Shown: piece by piece, positions 6,923-34,605 of the stretch | How positions within the stretch are numbered: the stretch's first letter is position 1 | Layout of the letters: each line of letters begins with the position of its first letter | Origin: a virus | Direction: 5' to 3' (one strand) | Virus record (IMG/VR): IMGVR_UViG_3300031834_000001 | Location: 28,859 to 92,858 of that record | DNA length: 64,000 nucleotides | Program-made: the position numbers and the translations under genes | The notes under the pieces: model-generated | What the model was told of the DNA's origin: nothing | The model's input: the letters and a program-made list of their open reading frames with translations, nothing else | Databases searched by the model: none

Positions 6923-9903
6923 TGACCATGACCACCAAACTCCCCGTGCCCGTCCGTTCCGGCCTCCCTCACGGCTATGACTTCGATGTCCGCCTAGACG
7001 GCCGGTCCGTCACCGTCGAGCTAGTCCGAAGCACCCTCTTGGCGTCCAACTCGGTTGCCAGGAGACCCGCAAACTTCTTCGTTCCCATCGACTCCACCAC
7101 ACTTACCCCGCCCTCCTGGTTTGCCTGGCTATTTGGTGACCGCCTCCACCTCCGGGTCCGGCAGGCTGGCCGAGAACTCGCGAGGAGGGCCTGGGAGAGG
7201 GAGGCCGCCACGAAGCCCCCGCCGGATAGGACGCCCCGCAAGTACCGGGCCAACGACATCGTCAAGGGGTACCAGCCGACTGAGGGGATGGCTGAGGACG
7301 CCGAGCCGCCCAAGGGTGGCAGCGGGGTCAGGTATCCCGCGACAGTCAAAGTAACCAAGGTGAGCCGGGGAACCCTCGACTCCCTGGTGGCCGAAGAAGT
7401 TGAGGTCGCCGAGGGCGAGTTGGGTGATCCGGCAGAGGAGGTCTCTCCGTGAGAACTAGATGGACATGGGGTTTCCGCGAGGACACGCCCTACACGCTGA
7501 CCCGGCGTGCCGAAGGCCCCAACGTGGTCTTCGAGATTGACGGGCGATCCCGGTGGCGCCGTGTGGACTACCGGTATGGCTACTACTACCCCACCTGGCA
7601 CTGGGTTGTCACGCCGTTCACCTGGGCTGGCACGCTTTGCGGGCGCGCCTTCGAGGAGAGAGTGGCCAAGGCTGCCGGGCAGGCCGAGAGGCTTCTGGCG
7701 TTGCTGAGGGCCGGGGATGACGAAGCGAAGCGGGCGCACGAGGAGGCCAAGAGGGTGGCGGGGCTAGTCGGAGATGACGGAGGCGAGGGTAAGCCATGAC
7801 CTGCAGAGTGGTCGTCGAACCGCGAGGAGACGCCGTCGTTGTCAGGCTTACCAGGTGCCTGGCGAACTGCGCACCGATGATGAGCGGTTCTTGCGTCGAG
7901 GAAGAGGACCCGGAGGCGTGCTCCGAGCGTCGGCCTGTCTGGTGGGTCTACCTGCCCGGCTGGCTGGCCCGGTTGTTCGGAGCCACCCCCGAGTCCAGGG
8001 TTGCCCGCGCCCATCGGATAGCCGCAAGGCACGCCGAGAGGCTCAACGTCCAAGGTGAACGGTATGACCGGGCGTGCGAGCAGGCCAAGAGGGTAGCAAT
8101 GTTGTGGGGAAGTGGCAAGGATGTCTAGCCTAACCGGCAGGCCCACCTGTCCCCGGTTGGTGGCATTGGAGGTTACCGCCCATGGCGAGAAGGCCAGGGG
8201 GTATCGTTGCGCCAACGTGTTCTGCTTGGAGCGCCCGCCCAACCCGTGCGACTGGAGCGAGCCATTCACCCCGGCAGACTCGCAACCTCTGCCGACGCCG
8301 CCAGCCAAGGCCCAGTCGCGGTTTTGTGACGCCTGCCAGGAGACGGACTGGCGGAACGCGGATGGCTCCTGGCCGCGAGAGTGGAGACGGTGGTATCAAT
8401 TCGGATGGGTTGCCAAGTTGGCCGGCCACATCCACCTGGCCTGCTACTCCGAGTGGGCCGCTAAGCATCCCGACCGGACCGGCGTTGCCGTGTGCGAGGC
8501 AGACGTCGATGACTAACCTTCTCCCGGCCACCTGGCTCGGTTGGCTGGCCTGGTGCGCGTTGCTTATCGCCAACTATTTCCTTTGGCGACTCCTCTCCCG
8601 CATGGTCGGCCTCGACGCCGGGCTCGGCAGACCGGCCACGGCTGAGGAGGTTGTCGTGTGGGGCCTGGGGCGAGTGGAGAAGCGGCTCGAATGGTGGAAG
8701 ACGCATGGAGGTGTTGAGGATGGCTAGGACGACCACGGTAACCTGCGACTACTGCGGGGCCGAGTTCGGAGAGGCGATGGAATTCATCAATGTGGCCGTG
8801 TCCGTCTTGGGCGTGCGGCGCGGCGAGATTCGCAGTGGATGGGCCCAGACGCTCGCCAGCCTCATCGTTCCGGGCGACTACTGCGACTGGCGGTGCCTGC
8901 TCAAACGGCTGGCCGAGTATGCCAAGGCGGACGGGCTCGACGTGAAGGACCCGCTGACCGAGGAGGCCCCCGTCATCCCCAATCCGCCCCAGACTCCCCC
9001 GCGCGGAGGTTGGATCAGGAAGGGCGGGATAGGCGAGGTTCCCACGTCAGCCAGGCCGCCACTGCTACCGGGGATTCCGAAGGAGGTTGGGCCATGAGCG
9101 ACCACGTCTCCCGCGCCAGGATGCCCATTTCCCAGGACCTCCTCGCCGCCCTCACCCTCCGACCCTGGCAGGCGTTCCTTGTTCGCCTGGCAACCCTGGT
9201 CGGCATGGGCAAACGGCTGACCGACTACTTCCAGGGGCGCGCCCTGGTGGCCCATGTCCGCCGGAGGTTCAACGAGGATTTCCGGCGCAGGTGGGAAGAG
9301 GCGGAGCGGAAGGTGGAGGACGAAATCCTGTACGGCACAGGGTTCAATATCCCGATGGGTATCCTCGATAACCGCGATGACCGGGCGCTCAACGCTTATC
9401 AGGAAGACGAGGAGGTTGACCATGACTGACACGCGTACTATCACCCTCCGGTTCGCCGTGGACATCGAGGTGGCCGTGGTGGATGGCCGGATAAGCCTGG
9501 ACGGTGTTCGCGGGGCCGCCTTGGCCAACCTGGCTACCCAACTTGAGAAACTCTGCTTGCCGGGCCGGACGCTCCTCGTATCGCCGGGAACGGTAACGCT
9601 GACCCTGGCTTCCATGCCCGGCGTGGGAGCCACGTTGTCCGAGGCTGGGCGGGGCTTCAGTTTCCTCCCAGCCGTATTGGCCGCTTTCCACGTCAAACCT
9701 GTCGGGCCTCGTGGGTTGGAGTGCCGGGAGATCATCATCGACGAATTGAGCGAGAAGGCCCCATGACTCTCCCCCTCATCTTCCATGTCACCCGAGCCCT
9801 CCCGCTCGGACCGTCCTCCTGGCGTTCCGGGACGATACCCGCCGACTGCGGGCCGCCCAAGCCGGGTCAGGTGGTCATGGTGAAGATGGAGGCCGACTCT
9901 TGA
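6919..9903 (+). CDS. Run of small hypothetical ORFs (6919-7452, 7449-7799, 7796-8128, 8121-8516, 8509-8727, 8720-9097, 9094-9429, 9422-9766, 9763-9903)
   Basis: ATGA/GTGA overlaps with GGAGG RBS; several Cys-rich or with one hydrophobic segment. Confidence 0.55.
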
Positions 9904-10949
9904 CCACCCTTACCGCTCCCCAACTGGTCTATCAAGCCGCCCTGGCTACCGGGTGGCCCGCTTCCGCCGTGGCCGACGTGCCCGACGGGACTTGCTGGCT
10001 CTGCCAGGGGGAGACCGGCGGCAGGGGTCGGCTGGTCGGCGGCATGTTGTCCGACACGTTCAACGACTCCAACCTGGCTCGCGGCGGGGGCCAGTCTCTC
10101 TGCCCGGCCTGCGTCTTCTGCCTGCAGGAAAGGGTTCGCGCCAAGGCGGGCGAGTCGGCCAAGTTGAGCCCGGATGAGCGAGCTGCCCATCGTCGAGCCA
10201 TGAAGGACCCCGCCCAGGCGGCAAACGGCGTCCTCGGTCTCCGCATGTTCTCCTATCTTGCCACGTCCAACAGACTCCTCCTGCCCGACCGTTCCGAGTG
10301 GCGGGACATACTCCTCTCCCCTCCCGAGCCGCCCTGGACCGCCGCGATAGCCCTTTCCGGCCAGAAACACCTAGCCTTGCGCGGCAGGGTCAACTGGTCC
10401 AACCTGGCCCCCATCGTCCTTCTCGAAATCCAGCTTATCCAGTTCACCCCGGCCAACCTCGCCGCCGACCTGGCCATCATCGAGGACGGGATGACCGTGT
10501 TCTCCAAGACGGAACTGGAGACCGGAGATTACTCCATCCACCGGATAGGCCAGTTCGGACTCGACCGCTTCGAGGAACTGGAGGGACGCCTGGCGGCCAT
10601 GCGTCTCCGGCGAAGCCAGTTTACCCTGGCCGTCTACGTGGCGAGGGAACCTCATGACTCCAGGTGTACTCGGCCCGTCCAACCTCGCCCGAACACCGGG
10701 GTATCCGTGCCCGCTTGCTTCCGCCAGAAGACCCCAACGGCCAAGGCGCAACAAGAAGTCTGGTTCGCCGACCCGGCCAACCGCGCCAAGTGGTCCATGC
10801 GGCCCGGCGCGTGGGAGTGTCACCCCGAGTGCCGGGTACTCCTGGCTCGGTCAGGCGGGCAGAAGGAACCTCGCCCGGCGGCTAGCAACTCCATGATAGC
10901 GAGGGAGGGTTGGGCCGATGGACTCTTCGGGGAGGCCAAGGTTCGCTAG
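9900..10949 (+). CDS. csf1: Type IV CRISPR large subunit Csf1 (Cas8-like)
   Basis: CWLC...SDTFND...LCPAC zinc site and LLSPPEPPW...SGQKHLALRGRVN motif; upstream of csf2/csf3. Confidence 0.8.
   Translation: MTTLTAPQLVYQAALATGWPASAVADVPDGTCWLCQGETGGRGRLVGGMLSDTFNDSNLARGGGQSLCPACVFCLQERVRAKAGESAKLSPDERAAHRRAMKDPAQAANGVLGLRMFSYLATSNRLLLPDRSEWRDILLSPPEPPWTAAIALSGQKHLALRGRVNWSNLAPIVLLEIQLIQFTPANLAADLAIIEDGMTVFSKTELETGDYSIHRIGQFGLDRFEELEGRLAAMRLRRSQFTLAVYVAREPHDSRCTRPVQPRPNTGVSVPACFRQKTPTAKAQQEVWFADPANRAKWSMRPGAWECHPECRVLLARSGGQKEPRPAASNSMIAREGWADGLFGEAKVR
10863..10891 (+). promoter_or_regulatory. Putative phage-sigma promoter AAGGAACC-N15-CAACTC inside the csf1 3' end
   Basis: Motif copy followed by GGGAGG and ATG 10918. 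Confidence 0.55.
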
Positions 10950-12045
10950 GCCGTTCTTCGTGACCCCGCACGCCGTGGACCAATTTCGCGCCAAGATAGC
11001 CGACCTCGCCCCGGCGGACGTGATAACCGAGGTCCAACGGATGATGCAGGATAAGCGGCTGCCGCCAACCTGGACGCCCAAGGGGAGCCCGTCCGCCAAG
11101 GTTGCCTGTATCCTCCCCGTTGACGCCGAGTTGCGCGAGGGTGGCCTGACGCTTATCTATCTCGGGTGGCTCGGGAGCAACCCGGTGTATATTCCCACCC
11201 TGGCCCCCGACGGAGTTCATGGGGGCTGGCCGTCCGTGCCTACCGTCATGGGCAAGGAGTCCAGGCTTCACAACGTTCTCGTCCGGGCGGCGGCGTGGAA
11301 GAAGCGGTGCGGCAGGTTCCCTCTGCGGCGATGGGTGGAGGAGGACGACCGCCTACTCGCGGCGCTAAGGGATGCCGGGTTCAGCATCCGGCAAGTGGCG
11401 TCCATCATGCGCCGGGGCCACCACACTGTCTGGCGGCACACTCGCCACCCACTGGATCGCCGACAAGACTGGCCCGCTGACGACGTCCAGGCCGCCGTGG
11501 CGCTAAGGGCGGGCGGCAAGTCCTGCCGGGAGGCCGGGCTCATCCTGGGGCGCACATCGGGCGGCGTGGCCATGCGGCTCTACAGGTACCGCCGGGAACA
11601 TCCGAGGGACAAGCGAGCCCGGACCACCGTGCCCGGCCCATGGCCGAAGGAGGACGTGACCCTCGCGGTAGCCATGCGGGCCGAGGGGAAGACGCTGGCC
11701 CGGATAGGCGAGGCCGTCCACCGGAGCCGGGCCGCCGTGAGTTGGCGGATTGTCCGGGAGAGCAGGAAGCCTCTAGCCCCCGAGGTTACCGGGCCGTGGA
11801 CGGAGGCCGAGTTGGAGTTAGCCCACAACCTGCGGGCCAAGGGGAAATCGTGCCCCTGCATCGCTCGGAAACTCAAGCGGAGCGTGGGGGCCGTCTACCG
11901 CAAACTTGCCCTAATCCGCGAGAAGCGCCTGGCCGATCCGAGGGGGCGGGCCATCGCGGGGATGGTGGGCCGGATAATCAAGGTAGTCAGAAAGGAGGGC
12001 ATCGAATGTCTACCGGAACCTTTCAGCCAGAAGAACGCTCCCTAA
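10918..12045 (+). CDS. Protein with four tandem Myb/GcrA-like HTH repeats
   Basis: Repeats WVEEDDRLLAALRDAG, WPADDVQAAVALRAGG, WPKEDVTLAVAMRAEG, WTEAELELAHNLRAKG, each followed by an S/T-x-x-x-A/G...R helix. Confidence 0.7.
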   Translation: MDSSGRPRFARPFFVTPHAVDQFRAKIADLAPADVITEVQRMMQDKRLPPTWTPKGSPSAKVACILPVDAELREGGLTLIYLGWLGSNPVYIPTLAPDGVHGGWPSVPTVMGKESRLHNVLVRAAAWKKRCGRFPLRRWVEEDDRLLAALRDAGFSIRQVASIMRRGHHTVWRHTRHPLDRRQDWPADDVQAAVALRAGGKSCREAGLILGRTSGGVAMRLYRYRREHPRDKRARTTVPGPWPKEDVTLAVAMRAEGKTLARIGEAVHRSRAAVSWRIVRESRKPLAPEVTGPWTEAELELAHNLRAKGKSCPCIARKLKRSVGAVYRKLALIREKRLADPRGRAIAGMVGRIIKVVRKEGIECLPEPFSQKNAP

Positions 12046-12530
12046 TTCACGGATTCTGGACGCGCCACGAAAGCCGGGCCATAGCGGCTTTGTTGGTCTA
12101 CGGCATCTACCGCTCGCGAGACCAGGGCCGTTTCAAGGTCACGCCCGACATGTGGGGCCGGATTGAGCGGGCGGTCAAATCCTGCGCCCTGAGCGCTCAG
12201 GACTTGGAGGAATTCATCGACCGCTTCAAGTCCAAGATGCAGTGTTCGACCATCCACCCCCGATACATGCGGTCCGACCTCGGCGTCGGCCAAACTCTTG
12301 TTGAGGACCGCAGGACCGGCGAAATCCTCGGTACCAGCGGCGACCGCCGGGAATTCTGGGTGGAAATTCTGGAGGACGCCGACCACAAGGCCGCCCTGGA
12401 CGCCCTGTACCGCCAGACAGGCGCGGTTGTCGCCTTGGTCCGTGACCGCCTGGAGCGCGAGAAACCCCTGGAAGCCATGATTGGAGAGGAGACGCGAAAT
12501 GACGGCGACACCGACAACAAGGCCGAGTAG
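12006..12530 (+). CDS. cas11: Type IV-B small subunit (Cas11-like)
   Basis: 174-aa helical protein directly before csf2; MWGRIERAVKSCA...LEEFIDRF...VALVRDRLEREK; AAGGAGG RBS. Confidence 0.65.
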   Translation: MSTGTFQPEERSLIHGFWTRHESRAIAALLVYGIYRSRDQGRFKVTPDMWGRIERAVKSCALSAQDLEEFIDRFKSKMQCSTIHPRYMRSDLGVGQTLVEDRRTGEILGTSGDRREFWVEILEDADHKAALDALYRQTGAVVALVRDRLEREKPLEAMIGEETRNDGDTDNKAE

Positions 12531-13557
12531 TTCCTATAAAACCTACTACTTGGAGGGCATCGTGACCCTCCTGTCCCCCCTGTCGCATATCGGGGAGAAT
12601 CTCGGCACGACGACCCACTTTTCCCGGCAGGCCATCGTCGGCCCCGACGGGAAACGCGTGGAGTGCTTCGCCCATTCGGGCAACGGGTTCCGGGGTCACT
12701 TCCGGGACGATGGGGTGAAGCACCTCCTCCGCGCCCTGGGTAGCCCGAACCTGCCGCCCAAGCCGTTTCACCTGCTCTTCGGTGGCGGCACGATGACCGG
12801 GGAATTCGTGGTGGACATTGACCTCGCCCGGCGACTCCGGGAAGCCCTGCCTCTCCTATCTCTCTTCGGGGCCGCGACGGGCAATCACATCATGCCCGGC
12901 AAGTGGAACACGGGTATCCTGTGGCCAATCTGCGCCGAGACGCAACGGCTCCTCCCGGCCTATCTGCGGAACCCCGAGGCCCCGTCCTGCCGGACGTGGA
13001 TAACCGAACTCAACTTCAGCAGAAAGGACGACGGGAAGGATGAGCGGCTAACCCGACACATGCTACCCGGCGCGACGGGCCAGTTGGCGTTAGGGGGAGC
13101 CGAGCCCACGCCGAAAAAGAGGGGCAAGGGCAAGCCTAGCGACGACGGGGAGGCCGGGGACGAACCGGCCCAGCAGATGCGCTATACCGTCCAGGCCCTC
13201 GCGGCGGGCGGCGAACTCTTCCAACGCATCCACGTCCTCGACGCCACCGAGTTGGAGTTCGGGGCTCTCATGTCCTGCTTCTCCGAGTGGTCCCAGGCCC
13301 CCTATCTGGGCGGCAACAACGCGAAGGGCCTGGGGCTCGTTGCGGGCGAGTGGACCTACCAGACCGGCGAGATGGACGAACCGGCCCCGCTAGTCTCCGC
13401 CGGGCCGGGGGAGTTCGCGCCGAAGAACGCGGGCAAGGAGGCCCTGGACCGCTACGACGCCTATCTCCTCGACGCCTACGAGAGGTACATTTCGGGCAAC
13501 GCGCCCGAAATCAGGCAGGCCCTCGGGGTAAGCGGAGGGGTCCATGGAACCGCTTAG
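12499..13557 (+). CDS. csf2: Type IV backbone subunit Csf2 (Cas7 RAMP)
   Basis: TLLSPLSHIG, SGNGFRGHFRD, LLFGGG, LPLLSLFG, G-rich loop LGGNNAKGLG. Confidence 0.9.
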   Translation: MTATPTTRPSSSYKTYYLEGIVTLLSPLSHIGENLGTTTHFSRQAIVGPDGKRVECFAHSGNGFRGHFRDDGVKHLLRALGSPNLPPKPFHLLFGGGTMTGEFVVDIDLARRLREALPLLSLFGAATGNHIMPGKWNTGILWPICAETQRLLPAYLRNPEAPSCRTWITELNFSRKDDGKDERLTRHMLPGATGQLALGGAEPTPKKRGKGKPSDDGEAGDEPAQQMRYTVQALAAGGELFQRIHVLDATELEFGALMSCFSEWSQAPYLGGNNAKGLGLVAGEWTYQTGEMDEPAPLVSAGPGEFAPKNAGKEALDRYDAYLLDAYERYISGNAPEIRQALGVSGGVHGTA

Positions 13558-14230
13558 GGTGATCGCTACTCTCGAAACCGGCCAGGTGGCCACGTTCGAC
13601 GGGAATCTCCCGCTCGATGGTATCATCGCGGCCGCCTGGATGCGCCGGTATCACCCGGATGCCTTCTGGACCGGCGCGCCGAACCGCATGGGCGAGGACT
13701 GGATTGAGCCTATCCTCCCCCTTGACCGGCGCGTGTCGGACGGGGAGTGGTACTGGGCTTCCTCGTTCGCCCGGTACCGCCAACTGTCCGAGGAGATCAC
13801 CTACTGGCATAAGAGGTTCGACGACGACATGGAACACTTTCTCGACTTGGGCGGCCGGAGTGGTAGGATGAATGTGAAGTCGGGGCCATTTAAGAGTTAC
13901 CGGATGCCCCTGGTCTACATGGTCACGCCGGAGCTAGTCTGGCACATCGTTGGCGACAGGGGGGAAGTGGCGAGCCTACTCGGCATGATACCCGCCGTCG
14001 GCAAGAAGCGCTCGGCCGGCTATGGTTTCGTGGCCTCCTGGGTGGTCGAACCCTGGCCGGTGGACCTCTCCTGCCATGATGAGCGCGGGAGACCGATGCG
14101 AGCCATTCCGACCAGGGACGGCCCGTCCGAATGTGGGGTCAGGCCGCCCTACTGGCATCCGGTGAACCGGGTTAGGTGCGAGATGCCTGCCCCGTGGGGA
14201 GGAACTGGGGAGTGGGAGAGACAGGGATAA
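13544..14230 (+). CDS. csf3: Type IV Csf3 (Cas5 RAMP)
   Basis: PLRVIATL...LPLDGIIA; G-loop VGKKRSAGYGFV; RPPYWHP. Confidence 0.85.
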   Translation: MEPLRVIATLETGQVATFDGNLPLDGIIAAAWMRRYHPDAFWTGAPNRMGEDWIEPILPLDRRVSDGEWYWASSFARYRQLSEEITYWHKRFDDDMEHFLDLGGRSGRMNVKSGPFKSYRMPLVYMVTPELVWHIVGDRGEVASLLGMIPAVGKKRSAGYGFVASWVVEPWPVDLSCHDERGRPMRAIPTRDGPSECGVRPPYWHPVNRVRCEMPAPWGGTGEWERQG

Positions 14231-14748
14231 TGTTTCCGTGCCTGGGGGTCAAGCTGGTTCCGGCGGACAAGGTAGTCTGCAACGGCTACAATCCCAACAA
14301 GGTGGCGCGGCGAGAGCTCGACCTGCTGGAACTCTCCATCAGGGAGGATGGGGTGACTCAGGCGCTCGTGGTCTACCATGATGTTGGGGCCGACAAGTAC
14401 GTCATTGTGGACGGGTTCCACCGCTACGTCGTCCTGGTTCGCCTGGGGTGTGCCGAGATCCCGGTAGTCGTGATCGACAAGGACCTGAGAAACCGCATGG
14501 CGAGCACTGTCCGGCACAACCGGGCGCGGGGCAAGCACCAGGTGGACTTGGTGGCCGAGTTGGTCAAAGCGCTCCTCGCCAAGGGATGGGACGACGCGAG
14601 GATAGCGGAGCATCTCGGGATGAGCGCGGAGGAACTGCTGCGCCTGAAGCAGATCGTCGGTGCCGCCAAGTTGCTGGCTGGCACGGAGTATTCGGCGTCT
14701 TACGGGAGGGACGATGAGCCGGATGGGCAGGATTCATCTGACAGATAA
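14230..14748 (+). CDS. ibrB: IbrB-like ParB/Srx-domain protein
   Basis: NGYNPNKVA, SIREDGVTQ, IVDGFHR, MASTVRHNRARGKH. Confidence 0.85.
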   Translation: MFPCLGVKLVPADKVVCNGYNPNKVARRELDLLELSIREDGVTQALVVYHDVGADKYVIVDGFHRYVVLVRLGCAEIPVVVIDKDLRNRMASTVRHNRARGKHQVDLVAELVKALLAKGWDDARIAEHLGMSAEELLRLKQIVGAAKLLAGTEYSASYGRDDEPDGQDSSDR

Positions 14749-15496
14749 CCACGATCAACTGGACCTGCCGAGAGGACGCGAGGCGGTCTGGCTCCATTCC
14801 GCAAAGGACCGCAGGCCGCGGGCGGAGCGGTGCGTCACGCTCCCGGAGTTCCTGGATGCCCCCTGGGAGAGCGTCAAGGGTGCGGACCTCCTCGTCGTTG
14901 TCGGTCTCGTTTCCCGCCTTTGCACTCCCGGCAACAGGGTGCGCCTGGGCCAGTATCTCACCGACCCCTGGAATGGCCCCGAGCGCGTCTCGGTAGACGA
15001 CAGGTTGTTCATCGTCGATCCGTGGCGCATGTGGTGGCACTTTGGTTGCGTAGGCATCGACTTCGGGGGATGCTCCGTGAGTTATACCTTGGAGACTCGT
15101 TGGAACGGTTTCGTGGTGGGGATGAGGGAGAACCCCTGCACCCCTTCTGAACTCGACCGCTACGGCCTTGGCGTCATTGACGCCCGCGGAGCCTTCAAGT
15201 TCGAGCCGATCAACATTCACGTCGAACCCATGCCGGAGGAGGTTCGCGAATGCTACGCCGCCGAGAAAGAGGTCGCCTTCAACGAGGAGGCGACTCCGGC
15301 GGCGATCATCAAGCGCCTGGCCGCCTTCGCTTCATCGGTCTACCCGTCCCGGTCGGTGCCTTCGTTTAGGGACATGTTCCGCAACCGCCACCTTGAGGTC
15401 CGGGCCACAGACCTTGGCGTGGACCGCTTCCTGGCGAACCAGATTTCTCTCCGGGTTGAGTTGACCAACTACGCCGCCGAGAGCTTCGCCGTATGA
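14714..15496 (+). CDS. Hypothetical protein, possibly a degenerate SNF2-type helicase domain
   Basis: GGAGG RBS, coupled to both neighbours; DLLVVVGL, LFIVDPWRMWWHF and VEPMPEEVRECY echo SNF2 motifs without catalytic residues. Confidence 0.5.
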   Translation: MSRMGRIHLTDNHDQLDLPRGREAVWLHSAKDRRPRAERCVTLPEFLDAPWESVKGADLLVVVGLVSRLCTPGNRVRLGQYLTDPWNGPERVSVDDRLFIVDPWRMWWHFGCVGIDFGGCSVSYTLETRWNGFVVGMRENPCTPSELDRYGLGVIDARGAFKFEPINIHVEPMPEEVRECYAAEKEVAFNEEATPAAIIKRLAAFASSVYPSRSVPSFRDMFRNRHLEVRATDLGVDRFLANQISLRVELTNYAAESFAV

Positions 15497-16548
15497 ATGT
15501 CTACGAGGGGGCCGTAAACCGAATTAGGTTCATCTTCGCCGAGTTCCCGCGTGTGGTCGTCAGCGTCTCCGGCGGGAAGGACAGCACGTGCCTATTCTAC
15601 CTGGCGGCGGCAGAGGCGGAGCGGCAAGGGCGGCGCTTCGAGGTGTTCTTTCTGGACCAGGAAGCGGAGTATCAGAGTTCCGTCGAGATCATTGAGGGGA
15701 TGATGCGGCACCCGCTAGCGATCCCGCGTTGGTACCAGGTGCCCATCCATATGACCAACGCTACGAGTCACGCCGAACTCTTCCTCCACGCCTGGGGTGA
15801 GGGTGAAACTTGGATACGCGAGAAGAGCCCGCTGGCGATTCACGGCATCCCCGAACCATACCCGAAGCGGTTCTACGACTTCTTCCCCTGGTTTGAGAGT
15901 CTGGACCGGGAGCCGACGGCGCACCTGGTCGGCCTGCGGCAGTTCGAGAGCCTAAACCGTCACCGGGCGGTCTACAAGGCCAATGGGTACAAGCACTATA
16001 AGTGGAGCACCCGATGCGCTCCAGGAAGCGCGAGTTACCGCTTCTATCCGATTTTCGACTGGCAATTCCGCGACGTGTGGAAGTGCATCGCCGACAACAG
16101 TGTCCCCTACAACAAACTCTATGACCGCATGTACGCCCGGAGCGGCGCGAACATGAGCACCATGCGCGTGTCGAACCTCATCCACGAGCGGGCATTCCGG
16201 GCGCTGGCGCAGGTGCAGGAGTTCGAGCCGGACACCTACGACAAATTGGTCGCCCGGTTGGGCGGGGTGCATTGCGCCGCGCTCTACGCCGAGGACCGCT
16301 ACATCTTTAGCGCCGACCGCCTGCCACCCGCGTTCAAGTCGTGGCGGGAGTACCGCGACTACCTATTGGCGACGACGCCGTCAAGCACGCAAAGCCGCTA
16401 CCTCAAGCGCTTCGCCAAGCAGGACGCCGACGAGTCTGCCTGTCAGCACCAGGTCAAGCAGTTACTCCTCAACGACTGGGAAGGCAATCTTCCGATCACG
16501 CGGCAGAAGAGGCGGAAGGTCCGGGAGCAATGGTGGGACCTCCTATGA
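15493..16548 (+). CDS. ibrA: IbrA-like PAPS-reductase/DUF3440 PP-loop protein
   Basis: VSVSGGKDS, FLDQEAEY, VGLRQFESLNR, YPIFDW...DVW, YNKLYD, MRVS. Confidence 0.85.
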   Translation: MNVYEGAVNRIRFIFAEFPRVVVSVSGGKDSTCLFYLAAAEAERQGRRFEVFFLDQEAEYQSSVEIIEGMMRHPLAIPRWYQVPIHMTNATSHAELFLHAWGEGETWIREKSPLAIHGIPEPYPKRFYDFFPWFESLDREPTAHLVGLRQFESLNRHRAVYKANGYKHYKWSTRCAPGSASYRFYPIFDWQFRDVWKCIADNSVPYNKLYDRMYARSGANMSTMRVSNLIHERAFRALAQVQEFEPDTYDKLVARLGGVHCAALYAEDRYIFSADRLPPAFKSWREYRDYLLATTPSSTQSRYLKRFAKQDADESACQHQVKQLLLNDWEGNLPITRQKRRKVREQWWDLL

Positions 16549-17099
16549 CCGATATTATCATCAGGGCCTGCCGGGAGCGGCAAGCATGGGTGGACTATCT
16601 TCTCGACCGGCTACCGGGGGCCACGGTTGTCTACGATACCACGCGCAACGCGATGAACACCTTCCTCGAAGCCCTGCGAGTTGCCGGCGACCGCCCGGTT
16701 ATCCACATGGAGGACGACGTGCTCCTCGCGAAGGGGTTCGTCTGCAAGGCCGAGTCGGTGATAGGCGAACGTCCCGAGACGGCCATTCAGTTCTTCTCGA
16801 TGCGCAAGCGGGACATCCAGGTTGGGTCTAGGTGGGAACCCGGAGGGACCTTCCTAGCGGGCCTATGCTTCTACTTGCCGGCCGGGATGTCCGAGCGGCT
16901 CCTGCGCTTCGACTGGCCCCGTCGGGAGGAGCATCCCACCGGCCTAGACTTGCTGGTCGCCGATTTCCTGCGGGCCAACAAGGAGAGGTACTGGCTACAT
17001 GTCCCCAATCTGGCGCAACATCGGTTTGGCAAGAGTCTGATCGATTCCCGCCGCTCGCGCTATCGGCAGTCGTTGACCTTCGAGGACCCCGACGAATGA
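16545..17099 (+). CDS. Putative GT-A fold glycosyltransferase
   Basis: VIHMEDDVLL (hhhEDD) motif; late PNLAQH; ATGA-coupled on both sides. Confidence 0.6.
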   Translation: MTDIIIRACRERQAWVDYLLDRLPGATVVYDTTRNAMNTFLEALRVAGDRPVIHMEDDVLLAKGFVCKAESVIGERPETAIQFFSMRKRDIQVGSRWEPGGTFLAGLCFYLPAGMSERLLRFDWPRREEHPTGLDLLVADFLRANKERYWLHVPNLAQHRFGKSLIDSRRSRYRQSLTFEDPDE

Positions 17100-17845
17100 C
17101 GGAGGACGAAATGGAGTTGTATCACCTCCATGCCCGGCTTCCCCGCGTCCGCCGTTTGACCGCGCAGGCCATGTCCGACCTTCGCGACTGGCGGGCCAAC
17201 TGTTCCCGCCCTTACGTCGCTTGGTCCACCGGGAAGGACTCGACCCTCTGCTTGTGGCTCGCTCTCCAGGTGGACCCGAATGTCGAGGCTATCTACCTTG
17301 ACGCCGAGTCTTCCCTCCCGGAGACAGAGGAGATGCTCGACACCCTGCCCGCCCAGTGGGGCTTCCGCCTCCGAGTAGTCAAGACACGGCCGCTTCTCGA
17401 CATGCTGGCCCAGTATGGCTTGGACGACCCGCATATCGAGGAGCGGACGATGCAGGCAACCGTCCGGGAACCGATTAAACGGCTGAGACGCGAGGGATAC
17501 GACGGCGTTGTCGTGGGCATTCGCGCCGATGAGAGCCGGGGCAGAATGAAAGGCATTAACCGCATGGGGCGACTTTTCTGGAGCAAGTCGTCCGGGATGT
17601 TGACCTGCTGGCCTGTGGCCCGATGGACAAGCCGGGATGTCTGGGCTTACACGGTGGCCAACGGGCTCCCCTATAACCGGGCCTACGACAAGCTCCTGGG
17701 TTGGCCACTTGAGGAGCGGCGAGTCTCCTACTGGGCGGGCGAGACCAACAGGGAATGCGGCCGCTACGTCTGGCTCCGGCGGTACCACCCCGACCTTTAT
17801 GCCCAACTGGTTGCCCGACTCCCGCGAGTAGGCAACTTTGTCTGA
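17096..17845 (+). CDS. cysH: Type IV-B-associated CysH-like PAPS-reductase family protein
   Basis: YVAWSTGKDS, SLPET, VGIRADESRGR, PVARWTSRDVWAY. Confidence 0.85.
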   Translation: MTEDEMELYHLHARLPRVRRLTAQAMSDLRDWRANCSRPYVAWSTGKDSTLCLWLALQVDPNVEAIYLDAESSLPETEEMLDTLPAQWGFRLRVVKTRPLLDMLAQYGLDDPHIEERTMQATVREPIKRLRREGYDGVVVGIRADESRGRMKGINRMGRLFWSKSSGMLTCWPVARWTSRDVWAYTVANGLPYNRAYDKLLGWPLEERRVSYWAGETNRECGRYVWLRRYHPDLYAQLVARLPRVGNFV

Positions 17846-17863
17846 CCTGAACCCGCCGCCCTA

Positions 17864-18065
17864 AAGGAACCTCCCCGTTCCCGCCTCAACTACCACCCAG
17901 ACCCTGAACGCTAGGAGGCCGACTCGCCGCCGTGTCCGACTCTCCATCCCCCGTCACCCTGCTTACCGGAGACTGCCTGGTGGCCAAGAGTAGGCAGAAG
18001 GAACCTCCCTTGTCCGCTCTCAACTACCAGATAGACCCTGAAAGCGAGGAAGCCCAGTCGCCGTG
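17864..18065 (+). repeat. Two imperfect ~68-bp direct repeats (17864-17934, 17998-18065), each containing the phage promoter motif, an RBS and GTG
   Basis: AAGGAACCTCCC...CTCAACTACCA...AGACCCTGAA...AGGA...TCGCCG shared; 134-bp period. Confidence 0.8.
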
Positions 18066-20994: not shown

Positions 20995-21378
20995 ATGCCC
21001 ACCGCCCCACCCCACGCCTGCGCTAACCGAGCCTGCCCCGGCCTCGCCGCCAAGGGTCACCGCTACTGCCCGGCCTGCGAGGGCAAGGGCATGGGGCGCG
21101 AGGAAGCCAGGGTCTACGATGCCAGACGGGGGAGCGCGAGGGAACGGGGGTACGACGGGAGATGGGAGAGGTTCCGGGCTAGCATCCTGCGACACCGGGG
21201 TATCTGTGAGTACCGGGAGGACGGCGGTAAGCCCTGCGTTGAGCCAGCCACTGACGTGCATCACGTTATCCCCAAGGTTGACGGCGGCCCGGATACCGAG
21301 GAGAACGTCCAAGCTTTATGTGGCTATCACCATAAGGCGACTGAATCTAGAAGCGGCAGGCGGTGGGGCCATGCGTGA
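20995..21378 (+). CDS. Packaging-associated HNH endonuclease (HK97 gp74-like)
   Basis: RGSARERGYDGRW...ATDVHHVIPKVDGG...NVQALCGYHH. Confidence 0.85.
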   Translation: MPTAPPHACANRACPGLAAKGHRYCPACEGKGMGREEARVYDARRGSARERGYDGRWERFRASILRHRGICEYREDGGKPCVEPATDVHHVIPKVDGGPDTEENVQALCGYHHKATESRSGRRWGHA

Positions 21379-22183
21379 CCTGGTCTGCGAGAGATGCCAT
21401 GAACCCTTCCGATCAGTTAGGCCGCGCCAGTACTGCTCGCGAACCTGTTCCAACAGGGCAACCTCGCCGGTGAGGGAGGACGCTGCCGCCCAGAAGAAGG
21501 CGGTCACCCTGTGGTCATGCGGGGGAGGCGTGCAGAGCGCAGCGGTGGCCGTGCTGATAGTGGAGGGCAAGCTGCCCAGGCCCGACCTGGCCGTCATGGT
21601 GGATGTGGGATACGAGACGGCGGCCACATGGCGCTATGTGGACGAGGTCATCAGGCCGGGCGTTGGGGATGTTGGGGTAACGTTGGAGATCGTGAAGACC
21701 ACCGACTGGGCGAGCAATGACCTGTTCGACAGGACTGGCCACCTGGTCATTCCCGCCTACAAAGAGGACGGGGGCAGGTTGGCCACCCACTGCTCAGGGC
21801 CGTGGAAGGTCAGGGTGGTCAAGCGGTGGCTCAGGAGTCTGGGAGTAGAGAGGTGCGAGGATTGGGTGGGCATCTCGGCGGATGAGGCACAGAGGGCTAG
21901 GCCGTCGGGGAGCAGGTGGTTCAGTAACAGGTACCCGCTCGTTGAGGCGGGCATGACGAGAGAGGACTGCCTGTGGGCTATCTGTGGACACGGTTGGCCG
22001 AAGCCGATGAGGACATCTTGCGTCATGTGCCCACAGAGGAGCGCGGCGCAGTGGCGGGGGATGAAGGAGAGCCAACCGGACGAGTGGGACAGGGCGTGCG
22101 AGATAGATGAGGAGATTAGGGCGCGAGGCGCGAGGGCGTATCTGCACAGGTCGCTAAGGCCGCTCCGGGAGGCGTTGGGGTAG
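21371..22183 (+). CDS. Phage PP-loop (PAPS-reductase-like) protein with an N-terminal Zn finger
   Basis: WSCGGGVQS, DVGYE, VGISADE, RYPL, SCVMCP; N-terminal CERC...YCSRTC. Confidence 0.7.
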   Translation: MRDLVCERCHEPFRSVRPRQYCSRTCSNRATSPVREDAAAQKKAVTLWSCGGGVQSAAVAVLIVEGKLPRPDLAVMVDVGYETAATWRYVDEVIRPGVGDVGVTLEIVKTTDWASNDLFDRTGHLVIPAYKEDGGRLATHCSGPWKVRVVKRWLRSLGVERCEDWVGISADEAQRARPSGSRWFSNRYPLVEAGMTREDCLWAICGHGWPKPMRTSCVMCPQRSAAQWRGMKESQPDEWDRACEIDEEIRARGARAYLHRSLRPLREALG

Positions 22184-22245
22184 GTAGGGGCGGTGGAAAT
22201 CTGTGGGACCGACTGTGAGAGGACCGACAGGGTGGGAAGGAAGGC
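22183..22245. other. Probable cos/packaging-site region
   Basis: GGTAGGGGCGGTGGAAATCT...GGACCGAC (x2) downstream of the gp74-like HNH and upstream of terS, where HK97-type cos sites lie; purine-rich strand bias ends here. Confidence 0.35.
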
Positions 22246-23348
22246 AGTCAACCCTCCCCGGTTCAAACGTGATTTTGCCGCAAGAACAAATTGAACAGTC
22301 CGCTCAACCTAGCCTAGCTAGCGAAGAGGAGTCCTCCCACTCCCTGGTTGAGCGGGTTTCCATTTGGGAGACCGCGAGGGAGAGCGGAACCTTGATAACC
22401 GATCTGGGACCAGTCATTCGAGAGGCCCGACTGGCGGGCAGGGGCTACAAGGCCATCGCCAGAGAAACCGGATTCCCCCGAGATGCCATCCGCAATTACT
22501 GCAAGAGGAACGGCTTGGCCGGCGAGCGCGGTCCTCGACCAAAGGCTCGGGTAGAGACTAAGCCGCCCAAGCCAGTTCTCTGTCGGCGGTGCGGGAAGGA
22601 ACTCCCGGTCCACGCTTCCACGGGACCGCCAGCCCAATACTGTTCGAGCGAATGCCGGCGTGCCTGGTGGGAAGAACACCAAGATCAGAGGCGGCAGTAT
22701 GACCTTATCTGCAAGTGCTGCGGGAACTCCTTCAAGAGTGCGCGGCAAAGCCGGCAATTCTGCTCCCCTGGGTGTTCCCGCGCGGCCACAAGGCTTCTCC
22801 CTGACGGCGCGTGCGCGGTCTGCGGTAAGACGTTCAGACCTAGAAACACTCACCAGAAGTGCTGCTCCTGGCCCTGCGGGCAGACCGCGTCCAAGAGTGG
22901 CCGGCCTAAGCCGGTGGCGCGAACCTGCAAGCGTTGCGGGAAGACCTTTGTTCCCAAGCGGGCCAACTATGCTACCTACTGCTCGCGGGAGTGCGCGTTC
23001 GCGGACCGAGCGGTAGCAATCACCGAGGCGAGAGCGCGCAAGACGGTGCCCTGGCGGTTCGGCGCCGGCGATGCGAGTTGCCGCCGCCGGGCGAGGCGAT
23101 ATGGTCGAGCGGTGGAGAGAATTGTGCCGCTTGAGGTCTACGAGCGTGACGGTTGGAAATGCGGGATCTGTGGAAAGAAAGTTGACCGGCGACTTCGTTG
23201 GCCCCATCCCATGAGCGCGTCGCTAGATCATATCGTGCCCCTCTCGCGAGACGGGGACCATGTCGCCACCAATGTCCAACTCGCCCACCACAGTTGTAAC
23301 ACACGGAGGCACGTTACCGGGGCGGCGCAGTTGAGACTGCTACCCTAA
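22203..23348 (+). CDS. HTH + four Zn-finger repeats + HNH endonuclease (start uncertain)
   Basis: GYKAIARETGFPRDAIRNYC; 4x CxxCG...CSxxC; ERDGWKCGICG...SLDHIVPLSRDG...NVQLAHHSCN. Confidence 0.8.
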   Translation: MGPTVRGPTGWEGRQSTLPGSNVILPQEQIEQSAQPSLASEEESSHSLVERVSIWETARESGTLITDLGPVIREARLAGRGYKAIARETGFPRDAIRNYCKRNGLAGERGPRPKARVETKPPKPVLCRRCGKELPVHASTGPPAQYCSSECRRAWWEEHQDQRRQYDLICKCCGNSFKSARQSRQFCSPGCSRAATRLLPDGACAVCGKTFRPRNTHQKCCSWPCGQTASKSGRPKPVARTCKRCGKTFVPKRANYATYCSRECAFADRAVAITEARARKTVPWRFGAGDASCRRRARRYGRAVERIVPLEVYERDGWKCGICGKKVDRRLRWPHPMSASLDHIVPLSRDGDHVATNVQLAHHSCNTRRHVTGAAQLRLLP

Positions 23349-34300: not shown

Positions 34301-34537
34301 AACGTCGCCGGACTCACCGGGGCCAGCGGTCCCAACGGGGTGGCCATCCTCGCCAAGTTCAACGCGGCCAAGACTGGCGTCCTCTCGCTCGACGGGACGA
34401 CGAAGCAGGTTCCCTTCGTTCTAGAGGCCACAAAGAAACTGTACATCCACGGCGATGACGCGGCGACCTCGGCTGGCGGCACCACCAACTTCTACATCAA
34501 GTACCGCCGGATGGCCGCGAACGCCTACCTCGCCTAG
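31334..34537 (+). CDS. 1067-aa repetitive structural protein (candidate head fibre) with a beta-helix-like N-terminus
   Basis: FWVDS...GSEPDGPFASINYAV...GDTIIAMPGH; six ADNxFxSxxVVxNxDGSxLER repeats. Confidence 0.7.
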   Translation: MATGSRSALSWRNVPGGMPAVIDTGRYPGTVFWVDSTNSNAGDTSGHGSEPDGPFASINYAVTQCTASKGDTIIAMPGHVETVTAAGGLAFGVIGVKVIFQGEGSSRATINFTTAASADMDITAANVSLIGPRFLVGVDALTNPIHIAAADCLIKDAEWYDAPAKAAIDCVVATAAASRLVIDGWKFFASTTGTQKQSSIQVGAAANVVLKNIWIAGDFGTGNIENGTAWANVLIADVVLENTNVGPVPGITLAATATGNVVNAKVTIASGTVPITANNDMQWYDSGYSTTDASAWGTIGVIPAAGLEGKVDLVLADTTTIKLTAADAKIDTTAVAAAPVLNSLGRFIYSGGTARGTPLADSKSLVDALGTDGTTMSDNTTSIVGILGVNDADNAFVSSAVVANADGSILERLEFAQNQANKLDAVTLAAAPVAGSLARFVASGGTALGTALADSKSLVDALGSNGTTVADSATSVLGAIGANNADNAFTSAAVVANADGSALERLEFVQTKVGSPVGASVSADIATIDAHTDKIDSASLAVAPTAGSLATFIASGGVALGTALGASKSILDALGSNGLAVADSAVSVLGAVGANNADNAFGSAAVVSNADGSVLERAEYIQAQVALVKAVTDVEAAALGTNGTAVTDSAVSVLGAIGANNADNAFSSAAVVGNADGSVLERLEFVQTKVGSPVGASVSADIATIDANTDKIDSASLAVNPTAGSMARFVASGGTALGTALADSKSLVDALGTNGTTVADSATSVLGAIGANNADNAFTSAAVVANEDGSVLERIQWNQEQVAVTYAAANKIDGATLAVSPVAGSMARFVASGGTALGTPLADSKSLVDALGTNGTTLVDSATSIVGILGVDDADNTFASTNVVANEDGSILERQEFVQSKVGTLANAGGTVTLGGIFGDVANISMATRLDSATKKTVIADGTAIPNNTQAAAGLLATATNGDCYIEEIIWQRGVDNFVGPTNYELTTDNVAGLTGASGPNGVAILAKFNAAKTGVLSLDGTTKQVPFVLEATKKLYIHGDDAATSAGGTTNFYIKYRRMAANAYLA
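32290..34040 (+). repeat. Six intragenic coding repeats
   Basis: Near-identical DNA blocks, e.g. GAGTTCGTCCAGAC.AAGGT.GGCTCGCC.GTCGGGGCTTCCGTGTCCGCCGACAT at ~32852 and ~33383. Confidence 0.85.
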
Positions 34538-34605
34538 TTCCACCTAGTCCGACACGGAGGGCCTCGCTTCCGACGGAGGCCCTCCCCTACCTGGAGGTCT
34601 GACCC

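Follow-up and report, generated by a model that had tools for sequence, protein, structure and literature searches.

Subtype IV-B CRISPR-Cas loci, represented by the Csf complex of Mycobacterium sp. JS623 (PDB 7JHY), are usually borne by mobile elements and carry no array, adaptation genes, Cas6 or helicase; the described cases reside mostly on plasmids, phages and prophages being known as well (PMC10848311, PMC7038947). The solved complex bound heterogeneous RNA, and DNA binding is not known for it (PMC7937560, PMC8175902). Among DNA-modifying systems, Dnd comprises the ParB-like DndB and the PAPS-reductase-like DndC, and Dpd comprises the ParB-like ATPase DpdB and SNF2-type helicases.

The window analysed here, a stretch of 64,000 nucleotides, belongs to IMGVR_UViG_3300031834_000001, a complete phage genome of 92,858 bp with terminal repeats, rated 100% complete. 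A csf/ibrAB operon is followed downstream by genes for terminase, portal, protease, capsid and tape-measure proteins, and the phage origin of the record is confirmed; in this case, the IV-B genes reside on a complete tailed phage. The operon is located just upstream of the packaging genes, with early genes on its other side. Its nine named genes, all on the + strand of the window between 9900 and 17845, and one additional gene are as follows.

9900–10949, + strand: csf1, Cas8-like large subunit, 349 aa (PADLOC Csf1_0_IV, 1.5e-23)
10918–12045, + strand: 375-aa protein with four HTH repeats (Pfam HTH_23, 2.4e-9; HTH_38, 2.2e-8)
12006–12530, + strand: cas11, type IV small subunit, 174 aa (PADLOC typeIV_Cas11, 2.2e-34)
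12499–13557, + strand: csf2 (Cas7) (PADLOC Csf2_0_IV, 1.8e-59)
13544–14230, + strand: csf3 (Cas5), 228 aa (PADLOC Csf3_0_IV, 2.2e-49; TIGR03116, 1.6e-15)
14230–14748, + strand: ibrB, ParB/Srx-fold protein, 172 aa (Pfam ParB_N, 9.8e-9)
14714–15496, + strand: g7, predicted degenerate SNF2-fold protein, 260 aa (AF2 pLDDT 78.5, pTM 0.75)
15493–16548, + strand: ibrA, PP-loop ATP pyrophosphatase with DUF3440, 351 aa (Pfam PAPS_reduct, 1.3e-17; DUF3440, 1e-12)
16545–17099, + strand: g9, predicted GT-A (GT25-like) glycosyltransferase, 184 aa (AF2 pLDDT 84, pTM 0.84)
17096–17845, + strand: cysH-like (CasCysH) PP-loop enzyme, 249 aa (Pfam PAPS_reduct, 5.9e-20)

The locus contains the same five gene families as that of strain JS623, and the profile matches of csf1, cas11, csf2, csf3 and the cysH-like gene confirm its assignment to subtype IV-B; the NCBIfam models TIGR03114/03115/03116 also matched csf genes, with scores below the family cut-offs. 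The best solved relative in a profile search with Csf2, for which 90 homologues were collected, was the IV-B Csf2 protein of 7JHY (5.8e-38). The start of csf2 is at 12499 in the database copy, 12481 also being possible for the open reading frame, and cas11, which starts at 12006, is preceded by the ribosome-binding site GAAAGGAGGG. Residues C32, C35, C68 and C71 of Csf1 are invariant in an alignment of 23 sequences, and the protein beyond residue ~260 has no counterpart among its homologues. Like the published CasCysH (PMC8175902), the CysH-like protein has retained the PP-loop but no conserved catalytic cysteine: the SxGKDS motif is 97–100% conserved among 76 csf-linked homologues, while Cys221 is common to only 1% of them. 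The locus differs from JS623-type loci by the gene of the four-HTH protein between csf1 and cas11, which the preliminary description had omitted and whose N-terminal domain matches open reading frames beside csf1 in 15 of 96 csf2 loci, and by the insertion of ibrB, the SNF2-like gene, ibrA and the GT-A gene between csf3 and cysH.

Searches of the whole 92,858-bp genome gave no Pfam match to Cas1, Cas2, Cas6 or DEAD_2 (DinG), and scans with 10-, 12- and 16-mers found no CRISPR array; neither a mini-array nor an Rfam match was found in the locus. Together with the PADLOC scores, these scans bear out the array-less IV-B set without cas1, cas2, cas6 and dinG that had been described. The csf1-to-cysH genes form a single operon, again as described. 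Overlaps of 1–35 nt occur at all seven gene junctions from cas11 through cysH, among them TAATG at 14228–14232 and ATGA at 15493, 16545 and 17096; the four cassette genes between csf3 and cysH are translationally coupled, and neither a terminator nor a sigma-70 promoter is conspicuous inside the operon. A recurrent motif, AAGGAACCTC-N13-CAAC, of which the window contains four copies as against zero expected, may function as a promoter, its copies bracketing 10863–17864:

10863–10889, + strand: promoter-like AAGGAACCTC-N13-CAAC motif within the csf1 tail, upstream of the HTH gene
17864–18063, + strand: two 66-nt promoter-plus-leader-like units (17864–17929 and 17998–18063) at the start of the next transcription units

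The two 66-nt units, 134 nt apart and 79% identical, were considered as a possible CRISPR mini-array. This reading was rejected, as each repeat is a promoter-plus-leader-like unit in which the AAGGAACCTC motif is accompanied by a ribosome-binding site and a start codon.

Of the four genes between csf3 and cysH, ibrB and ibrA were identified by Pfam as previously suggested. Each of the IbrB motifs NxYNPN, DGFHR and RxxxTxxxNxARGxH shows 90% or higher conservation among 69 homologues, as does the SxSGGKDST motif of IbrA among 75. HMM searches did not support the calls of g7 as SNF2-like and g9 as GT-A, both of which were made from predicted structures. For g9, the model argues strongly for a GT-A fold, with PDB matches to POMGnT1, GnT-I and COLGALT1 (E 1e-5 to 1e-4) and a separate match to the glycosyltransferase of Microbacterium phage Hendrix (TM 0.89, 35% identity); E56-D57-D58, a DxD-like motif, is invariant in the homologue alignment. 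An SNF2-like fold of g7 is predicted with moderate confidence: its best 21 VIA matches were all SNF2 ATPases (Z 6.1–9.9), the best Z of 9.9 comparing with a typical background best of 7–8 and with a Foldseek E of 0.017. We propose that g7 is a catalytically dead SNF2-fold protein, since Walker A and DExH motifs are absent from its alignment, which also places its start at 14714 instead of the 14660 assumed earlier. The conserved PP-loops and DxD-like motif suggest that IbrA, CysH and the glycosyltransferase are likely to be active enzymes.

The IbrB/SNF2-like/IbrA block forms the core of a cassette that is widespread among phages and normally carries SNF2 helicases. This kinship had been missed in the preliminary description, which was correct as to gene identities, layout and the array-less IV-B set. 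IbrAB cassettes occur in 213 cultured phages. In the ordinary cassette, the core, consisting of an SNF2-like protein X, IbrA and IbrB, comes after a pair of SNF2-family genes, one or both of which encode a full helicase; the csf–cysH genes fill the same slot upstream of X-ibrA-ibrB. Judged from an hhalign comparison (89.6%, E 1.9e-6), g7 is a diverged member of protein X. As in the ordinary cassette, IbrA combines PAPS_reduct with DUF3440, IbrB is a ParB_N protein with DGFHR, and an X-related protein precedes ibrA, albeit in the order ibrB-g7-ibrA instead of X-ibrA-ibrB. A GT-A gene also follows ibrB in some cassettes without csf nearby (L154, L159, L162, L172); weak DNA-methylase matches adjoin ibrB in relatives, and ParB-like open reading frames come after ibrB in many cassettes. 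Unlike the ordinary cassette, the window locus includes a Cas effector and, in CysH, a further PP-loop enzyme, and it has no SNF2 genes, nor are any present in the rest of the genome.

Among 61 informative loci, i.e., IbrA loci that had been dereplicated and had 4 kb or more of upstream sequence, 47 had SNF2 only, 12 had csf and cysH only, two had neither and none had both, the csf-linked share being inflated because the IbrA sample was picked by similarity to csf-linked IbrA proteins. The alternation is significant in Fisher's test (p = 5e-11); a phylogeny-aware sign test of exclusivity is not significant (p about 0.5), the number of independent contrasts being three on well-supported branches and six on all branches. 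All 12 csf-linked cassettes lack SNF2, and no SNF2 domain was found anywhere in two complete csf-linked genomes. It is the comparison with the SNF2-bearing cassette that makes the csf-linked one informative: the cassette is paired with IV-B cas genes in some loci and with SNF2 helicases in others, and no sampled locus has the two together, which provides a testable clue to IV-B function.

The link recurs. IMG/VR yielded 181 contigs with csf2 relatives and 198 with IbrA relatives, and a neighbourhood survey for csf2, ibrAB and the glycosyltransferase gene was positive, so that the block is not one that occurs at unrelated positions without co-occurrence with csf. The window IbrA falls into a clade of 11 rows (99% support), nine of which lie inside csf loci; one of the other two is an incomplete contig. 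The csf-linked loci of this clade show at least five gene orders. The orders in which cassette and cas genes are interleaved include csf2-[ibrB-g7-ibrA-g9-cysH]-csf3 (L098), csf1-ibrA-ibrB-cysH-cas11-csf2-csf3 (L096), csf3-cysH-ibrB..g7-ibrA (L003), and csf2-csf3-ibrB-g7-ibrA-g9-cysH (L105), the last being that of the window. The link requires a minimum of four changes on the IbrA tree and of five on the Csf2 tree, and none of 500 label shuffles was as clustered as observed. In an independent sample, JGI metagenome loci found through g7 alone contained csf genes in eight of eight cases with enough flank, and one of them, a 93%-identical relative, keeps the order csf3-ibrB-g7-ibrA. IbrAB is nevertheless optional for IV-B, since about 90 of 96 phage IV-B loci sampled through csf2 lack it; most IbrAB loci are without csf. 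We found no published paper on the csf–IbrAB link, and no mention of IbrAB or a ParB partner of IV-B in the type IV literature that was consulted.

Tentatively, and with somewhat less than even confidence, we suggest an ATP-dependent system of nucleic-acid modification in which the Csf–CysH complex has taken over the DNA-engaging role of the SNF2 motor. As we infer target molecule, chemistry, physical complex and biological purpose, an array-less phage IV-B set would have absorbed the enzyme core of the cassette, in which IbrB may act as an NTP-binding DNA protein of the ParB/Srx fold. The Csf ribonucleoprotein would engage nucleic acid, most likely double-stranded DNA, in the manner of an SNF2 motor, and hand it to IbrB/IbrA and CysH, which would spend ATP to adenylate, and so activate, a position on the DNA; a group-transfer enzyme, here the glycosyltransferase adding a sugar, would complete the modification. 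Such a mark, placed on the DNA of the phage itself ahead of packaging, would probably serve to protect it from cleavage by host defences. SNF2 enzymes are double-stranded DNA translocases, which, with the methylase matches near ibrB and the ParB-like open reading frames after it, points to DNA as the target; the glycosyltransferase could instead act on a protein or a cell-envelope sugar. The earlier idea of a nucleic-acid or protein modification machine is plausible, the PP-loops being intact in both IbrA and CysH, as is the DxD-like motif in the glycosyltransferase.

Defence or competition between elements, in which Csf would sense a competing phage or plasmid and the PP-loop enzymes, IbrB and the glycosyltransferase would be effectors, e.g., by AMPylating targets, depleting nucleotides or producing a signal, instead of tagging the DNA of the phage itself, is improbable. 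In its favour, other type IV systems are involved in conflicts among mobile elements, and AMPylation of targets or synthesis of second messengers has been suggested for CasCysH (PMC7038947, PMC13676074); moreover, PAPS-reductase, ParB and SNF2 domains are present in Dnd, Ssp, BREX type 4 and Dpd (PMC12839542), and IbrA and CysH weakly match DndC, SspD and BrxP. However, neither an array nor another source of specific guides was found in the genome, the operon lacks a nuclease, the cassette is located just upstream of the packaging genes of a virion-forming phage, and the breadth of IbrAB fits a function beneficial to phages.

IbrAB of E. coli reportedly co-activate prophage gene expression, and no other phenotype of IbrAB is known from experiment. 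IbrAB might likewise co-activate prophage or late genes, with Csf and the four-HTH protein directing or repressing transcription in a CRISPRi-like manner. The embedding of the HTH gene in the operon, the position of the latter between early and packaging genes, and the transcriptional repression by which type IV-A acts (PMC12669027) would agree with a regulator, but we consider it rather unlikely: the conservation of the PP-loop, ParB/Srx and DxD-like catalytic motifs implies that these proteins catalyse reactions and do not simply bind DNA, and it is not obvious why a regulator should alternate with SNF2 helicases or have accessory glycosyltransferases or methylases that differ from locus to locus.

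A still less probable alternative, raised in the preliminary description and unsupported by the present results, is counter-defence, a guide-less Csf filament taking up host crRNAs or small RNAs, which the PP-loop enzymes and the glycosyltransferase would modify or inactivate. The IV-B complex did assemble on heterogeneous non-CRISPR RNA (PMC7937560), and IV-B is negatively correlated with other CRISPR types in hosts (PMC7038947); yet the authors who raised this idea judged it unlikely (PMC7038947), and the alternating partner SNF2 is a double-stranded DNA motor, not an RNA enzyme. That IV-B and IbrAB are independent, functionally uncoupled modules of a variable region upstream of the terminase gene, as their location a few kb from it in both the window and L003, the many loci with only one of the two modules and the few independent contrasts might suggest, is very doubtful, given that the cassette lies within the cas operon, flanked by different cas genes in different lineages and with overlapping reading frames, that every informative g7 locus contains csf genes, and that SNF2 is missing from all csf-linked cassettes and from the rest of both complete genomes.

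The proposed modification system resembles Dnd, SspABCD, BREX type 4 (BrxP) and Dpd in joining an ATP pyrophosphatase of the PAPS-reductase family to a ParB/Srx protein and, in relatives, to SNF2 helicases, the matches of IbrA and CysH to DndC, SspD and BrxP all being far below the family cut-offs. It differs from them in that the operon has no cysteine desulfurase, DndD/DndE, SspB/SspC, PglZ or TGT and possesses a glycosyltransferase and a Cas effector. The likeness to these systems is one of analogous parts, not of membership.

The virus record, 92,858 bp long and with the window as its bases 28859–92858, has terminal repeats and a completeness rating of 100%; its exact terminal repeat of 31 bp looks like the overlap of a circular assembly. 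Genes for the large terminase, portal, protease, major capsid and tape-measure proteins, located at 23.7–45 kb of the window (GC content about 65%) and downstream of the operon, identify the virus as a tailed phage; its terminase shares no more than 44% identity with terminases from cultured phages. Eleven genes, all on the plus strand, occupy positions 9900–17845. Megablast searches with this locus against phage and plasmid records gave no match, and no Rfam family matched at the operon. The gene overlaps reported in the preliminary description proved real on re-reading, and the genes it named are present, but it missed a gene between csf1 and cas11 which codes for a 375-aa protein with four helix-turn-helix (HTH) repeats. 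Outside the operon, a third, divergent PAPS-reductase-like gene (21119–23348, plus strand; phrog_424, 1.1e-32; no Pfam match) adjoins a gene for an HNH endonuclease, a short distance upstream of the terminase gene.

The gene set of the window is a true subtype IV-B. PADLOC profiles identified csf1 as the gene of the IV-B large subunit (Csf1_0_IV, 1.5e-23), cas11 as that of the small subunit (typeIV_Cas11, 2.2e-34), csf2 as the IV-B cas7 gene (Csf2_0_IV, 1.8e-59) and csf3 as the cas5 gene (Csf3_0_IV, 2.2e-49), and the IV-B-associated cysH-like gene is part of the same operon (PAPS_reduct, 5.9e-20). The best solved relative found with a profile of 28 Csf2 homologues was the IV-B Csf2 structure 7JHY (5.8e-38), followed by IV-C and IV-A proteins; four cysteines are invariant in the alignment of Csf1 homologues. 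NCBIfam type IV models matched the Cas genes of the window as well, all of them with scores below the cut-offs (csf1 against TIGR03114, 33.9 bits, cut-off 140), while cas11 and the genes termed g7 and g9 matched nothing in Pfam or NCBIfam. Within the complete genome, there were no Pfam matches to Cas1, Cas2, Cas6_C, DEAD_2 (DinG) or SNF2 domains, and no CRISPR-like array was found; a divergent Cas6 could escape these profiles. The C-terminal tail of Csf1 (about 90 aa, window 10680–10949) has no counterpart in 22 homologues; it is overlapped by a promoter-like motif and the start of the next gene. An 18-nt repeat with two copies inside csf1 looks like chance.

Between csf3 and the cysH-like gene, the operon contains ibrB, g7, ibrA and g9. 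The ibrA product combines a PAPS_reduct domain (PF01507, 1.3e-17) with a following DUF3440 domain (PF11922, 1e-12), which is the architecture of IbrA, and its homologues in cultured phages are annotated as "putative IbrA" or "DUF3440 domain-containing protein". The ibrB product shows a ParB_N domain (9.8e-9) and the conserved DGFHR motif typical of IbrB. The two genes are paired in 78 of 79 loci; in the window they are separated by the single gene g7. Sequence motifs are well preserved in both families, SxSGGKDST being at least 90% conserved among 75 IbrA homologues and NxYNPN, DGFHR and ARGxH being kept among 69 IbrB homologues. The SxGKDS PP-loop of the CysH-like protein is likewise 97–100% conserved in 76 csf-linked homologues. 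Its ECG cysteine, Cys221, is shared by just 1% of the same homologues, and every NCBIfam CysH model scored below its cut-off. A strict PAPS reductase was rejected, as the C-terminal catalytic cysteine (ECGLH-type) is not conserved; judged from its sequence, the cysH-like product is a PP-loop enzyme of the PAPS-reductase family rather than a reductase of sulfate assimilation.

The 260-aa product of g7, the start of which was placed at 14714 by alignment with homologues, had been called an SNF2-like relic, a fair label with moderate support from the predicted structure and from the lack of conserved ATPase motifs. In a VIA comparison with the predicted model (pLDDT 78.5), the top 21 matches were all SNF2 ATPases (Z 6.1–9.9, 146–236 residues aligned); the Foldseek match was weak (E 0.017). 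Walker A (GxGKT) and DExH motifs are absent from the conserved columns of the homologue alignment, and neither SNF2-rel_dom nor Helicase_C of Pfam matched g7, suggesting that g7 encodes a degenerate relative of the SNF2 ATPases rather than an active one. At the profile level only, g7 emerged as a diverged relative of protein X, the protein preceding IbrA in ordinary phage cassettes (hhalign 89.6%, E 1.9e-6). Some IbrA clades have an SNF2-family paralog at the X position, which fits the fold prediction for g7.

For the 184-aa product of g9, a confident GT-A fold was predicted (pLDDT 84), and the model identifies it as a probable GT-A glycosyltransferase of GT25-like type. Matches to 70 PDB entries with E ≤ 0.001 were led by POMGnT1, GnT-I and COLGALT1 (TM about 0.6) and included mimivirus R655. 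Among viral proteins, the top match was to a protein of Microbacterium phage Hendrix annotated as a glycosyltransferase (TM 0.89, 35% identity), and numerous GT25 proteins came next. A DxD-type motif, E56-D57-D58, does not vary among nine homologues. Neither the g7 nor the g9 profile matched any PDB sequence, and BLASTP detected no similarity of either protein to the genes in equivalent positions of L010, another csf-linked locus. The glycosyltransferase is an optional accessory of the IbrAB cassette; its gene is located 3' of ibrB in loci without nearby csf genes, too.

The 375-aa HTH protein (10918–12045, plus strand) starts with a domain of about 120 aa, which the four HTH repeats follow. 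In 15 of 96 IV-B loci, a small ORF next to csf1 corresponds to residues 5–58 of this N-terminal domain. A structure search of the ESM Atlas returned RelE/ParE-like, DUF4258 and BECR-nuclease-like folds at TM values of 0.44–0.57, a lead only; if the domain has an RNase fold, the protein could serve array-less IV-B systems as an RNA-processing partner. The motif AAGGAACCTC-N13-CAAC occurs four times on the plus strand of the window (6873, 10863, 17864 and 17998; none expected from shuffled sequences). One copy is located within the csf1 tail and two just past cysH, and each of these three stands upstream of a start codon with its ribosome-binding site. The motif probably represents a phage-specific promoter family; if so, a single transcription unit of nine genes would extend from the HTH gene through cysH. 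Duplicated 66-nt units 3' of cysH were dismissed as a mini-array: they lie 134 nt apart, and both units contain a start codon and a ribosome-binding site in addition to the promoter-like motif.

Phage- and prophage-borne IV-B systems and the link of IV-B to cysH have already been published (PMC7038947, bioRxiv 10.1101/270033, PMC8175902, PMC10848311). Our literature searches for IV-B together with IbrA, ParB, DUF3440 or SNF2 retrieved no description of the association observed here. The database contains 90 Csf2 homologues, one of which (P0002) is 82% identical to Csf2 of the window. Scanning viral contigs with a single Csf2 protein gave no match, but alignment-based scans detected Csf2 relatives on 181 IMG/VR and 16 MAG contigs. 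Among 96 csf2 loci examined, csf1, csf2, csf3 and cysH were usual (a cysH-like homologue accompanied the csf genes in 80), cas11 was detected in 63, and full-length IbrA and IbrB were found in few, namely L003, L010/L011 and L096. Searching from the other side, we found IbrA relatives on 198 IMG/VR contigs; within the 80 of these loci examined, the closest relatives of the window protein were nearly all encoded within csf loci. Gene orders of csf-linked loci compared with the window are as follows.

Gene order around the IbrAB cassette in related csf-linked loci
L098: csf2-[ibrB-g7-ibrA-g9-cysH]-csf3
L105: csf2-csf3-ibrB-g7-ibrA-g9-cysH, the order of the window
L104: csf2..ibrB-g7-ibrA-cysH-csf3
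L003: csf3-cysH-ibrB..g7-ibrA
L096: csf1-ibrA-ibrB-cysH-cas11-csf2-csf3
L184 (Ga0310839_100013), ~7000–12400: csf3-cysH-ibrB-g7-ibrA-g9, on a 490-kb metagenome contig, which represents a bacterial chromosome with a prophage or else a very large phage

In the IbrA tree, the window belongs to a clade of 11 rows (99% support), nine of which are csf-linked. Of the other two, one is a truncated contig with the same sequence as a csf-linked contig; the second is L102 (IMGVR_UViG_3300033156_000333), whose ibrB..g7-ibrA block is nearly identical to that of the L003/L103 contig. Matches to csf, cysH and SNF2 were absent from the 34-kb fragment of L102, which is rated 50% complete; this may reflect a natural deletion or merely an incomplete contig. 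To account for the csf link, at least four changes are needed on the tree of IbrA and at least five on that of Csf2. Csf2 of the window is only distantly related to the Csf2 proteins of its IbrA neighbors, indicating that the cassette passed from one IV-B lineage to another without leaving IV-B. When, as an independent test, JGI metagenomes were searched by g7 alone, all eight loci with enough flanking sequence contained csf genes and none contained SNF2; on one contig, g7 was 93% identical and the order csf3-ibrB-g7-ibrA was the same. The operon-internal association of IV-B with the IbrB/X/IbrA core thus is recurrent. Apart from the cassette, two IV-B loci (L015 and L088) carry a second csf1-csf3 pair right after the first csf3, in the order csf1-cas11-csf2-csf3-csf1-csf3, with cysH next in L088. 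Among the cultured phages of the collection, Skermania phage SPI1 (KR011061.1, record positions 32609–36242) alone encodes a relative of Csf2 (30% identity). Its Orf40–44, all annotated as "hypothetical", fit csf1-cas11-csf2-csf3-cysH in size and order and look like an unannotated IV-B cluster, without IbrAB.

The ordinary cassette was defined by clustering the neighbors of 73 dereplicated ibrA genes. Its order is SNF2-like (about 400 aa), SNF2 (about 480 aa, bearing SNF2-rel_dom and Helicase_C), X (about 300 aa), ibrA and ibrB, and ibrB is often trailed by a further ParB-like ORF; in the csf-linked loci L003 and L010, ORFs adjoining ibrB weakly match DNA methylase. This SNF2 cassette is widespread, occurring among the loci L107–L176 and in 213 cultured phage records, which include Flavobacterium phages 1H and FCV-1 and phages of Mycobacterium smegmatis and Bacillus subtilis; a functional characterization was not found in the literature. 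Among dereplicated IbrA loci with at least 4 kb of upstream sequence, 47 had SNF2 only, 12 had csf and cysH only, two had neither, and none had both (Fisher p = 5e-11); these counts reflect few independent events, 3–6 contrasts. A phylogeny-aware sign test on these 3–6 independent pairs, which has low power, was not significant. In L136, a csf1-csf2-csf3-cysH block is located directly upstream of X-ibrA-ibrB, in the slot of the SNF2 genes of L129, and two complete csf-linked genomes lack SNF2 domains altogether. The csf genes replace SNF2 genes in csf-linked cassettes.

SNF2 enzymes are translocases of double-stranded DNA; this property, together with the weak DNA-methylase matches beside ibrB, suggests that the substrate of the cassette is probably DNA, and the Csf-CysH complex would probably supply the DNA-engaging function in place of the SNF2 motor. 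PP-loop enzymes activate their substrates by adenylation, ParB/Srx proteins bind nucleotide and DNA, and GT-A enzymes transfer sugars; taken together, these activities suggest a multi-step covalent modification of nucleic acid. The position of the operon just upstream of the packaging genes suggests the phage's own DNA as target. We tentatively favor the view that Csf-CysH is the DNA-engaging part of a nucleic-acid modification system acting on phage DNA, a reading to which we give somewhat less than an even chance. A defense or competition system carried by the phage is rather unlikely. Control of transcription seems less probable again; in E. coli, IbrA and IbrB reportedly co-activate prophage gene expression. 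A function as RNA sponge is more doubtful still. A coincidental neighborhood ranks lowest, since the cas genes on either side of the cassette differ from lineage to lineage.

Of the widespread CRISPR-Cas subtypes, IV-B is to our knowledge alone in having no known function, and the only earlier lead that we know of is the near-invariant cysH-like gene. The locus of the window and its relatives provide a second lead, in that IV-B genes repeatedly join a defined phage enzyme cassette (IbrB, an SNF2-like protein, IbrA and a group-transfer enzyme) and displace its SNF2 motors. This displacement points to a DNA substrate, and the chemistry would comprise ATP-dependent activation and group transfer, with a group-transfer enzyme that varies between loci. 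Extending the modification reading to the whole subtype, we consider it conceivable, if improbable, that IV-B systems are not immune effectors but RNA-scaffolded DNA-engaging modules, functionally interchangeable with SNF2 translocases, which bring to DNA the PP-loop adenylating enzymes, either CysH by itself or CysH together with IbrA/IbrB and a group-transfer enzyme, and so yield a new covalent modification, here a genome-protecting glycosylated adduct. Since the SNF2 cassette occurs in 213 cultured phages, with M. smegmatis and B. subtilis among the hosts, its function is directly testable and could then be compared with that of the Csf form. The biological role of IV-B was still termed unclear in 2026 (PMC13676074).

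Among known systems, Dnd/Ssp phosphorothioation was considered and rejected: matches of the window to DndC and SspD are weak and partial (1e-5 to 1e-2), and homologues of a desulfurase, DndD/E and SspB/C are absent from the eleven operon genes, which were the genes covered; a desulfurase could be provided by the host. The pattern of PP-loop and cysteine conservation observed here is consistent with the published view of CasCysH as an ATP alpha-hydrolase and not a PAPS reductase (PMC8175902).
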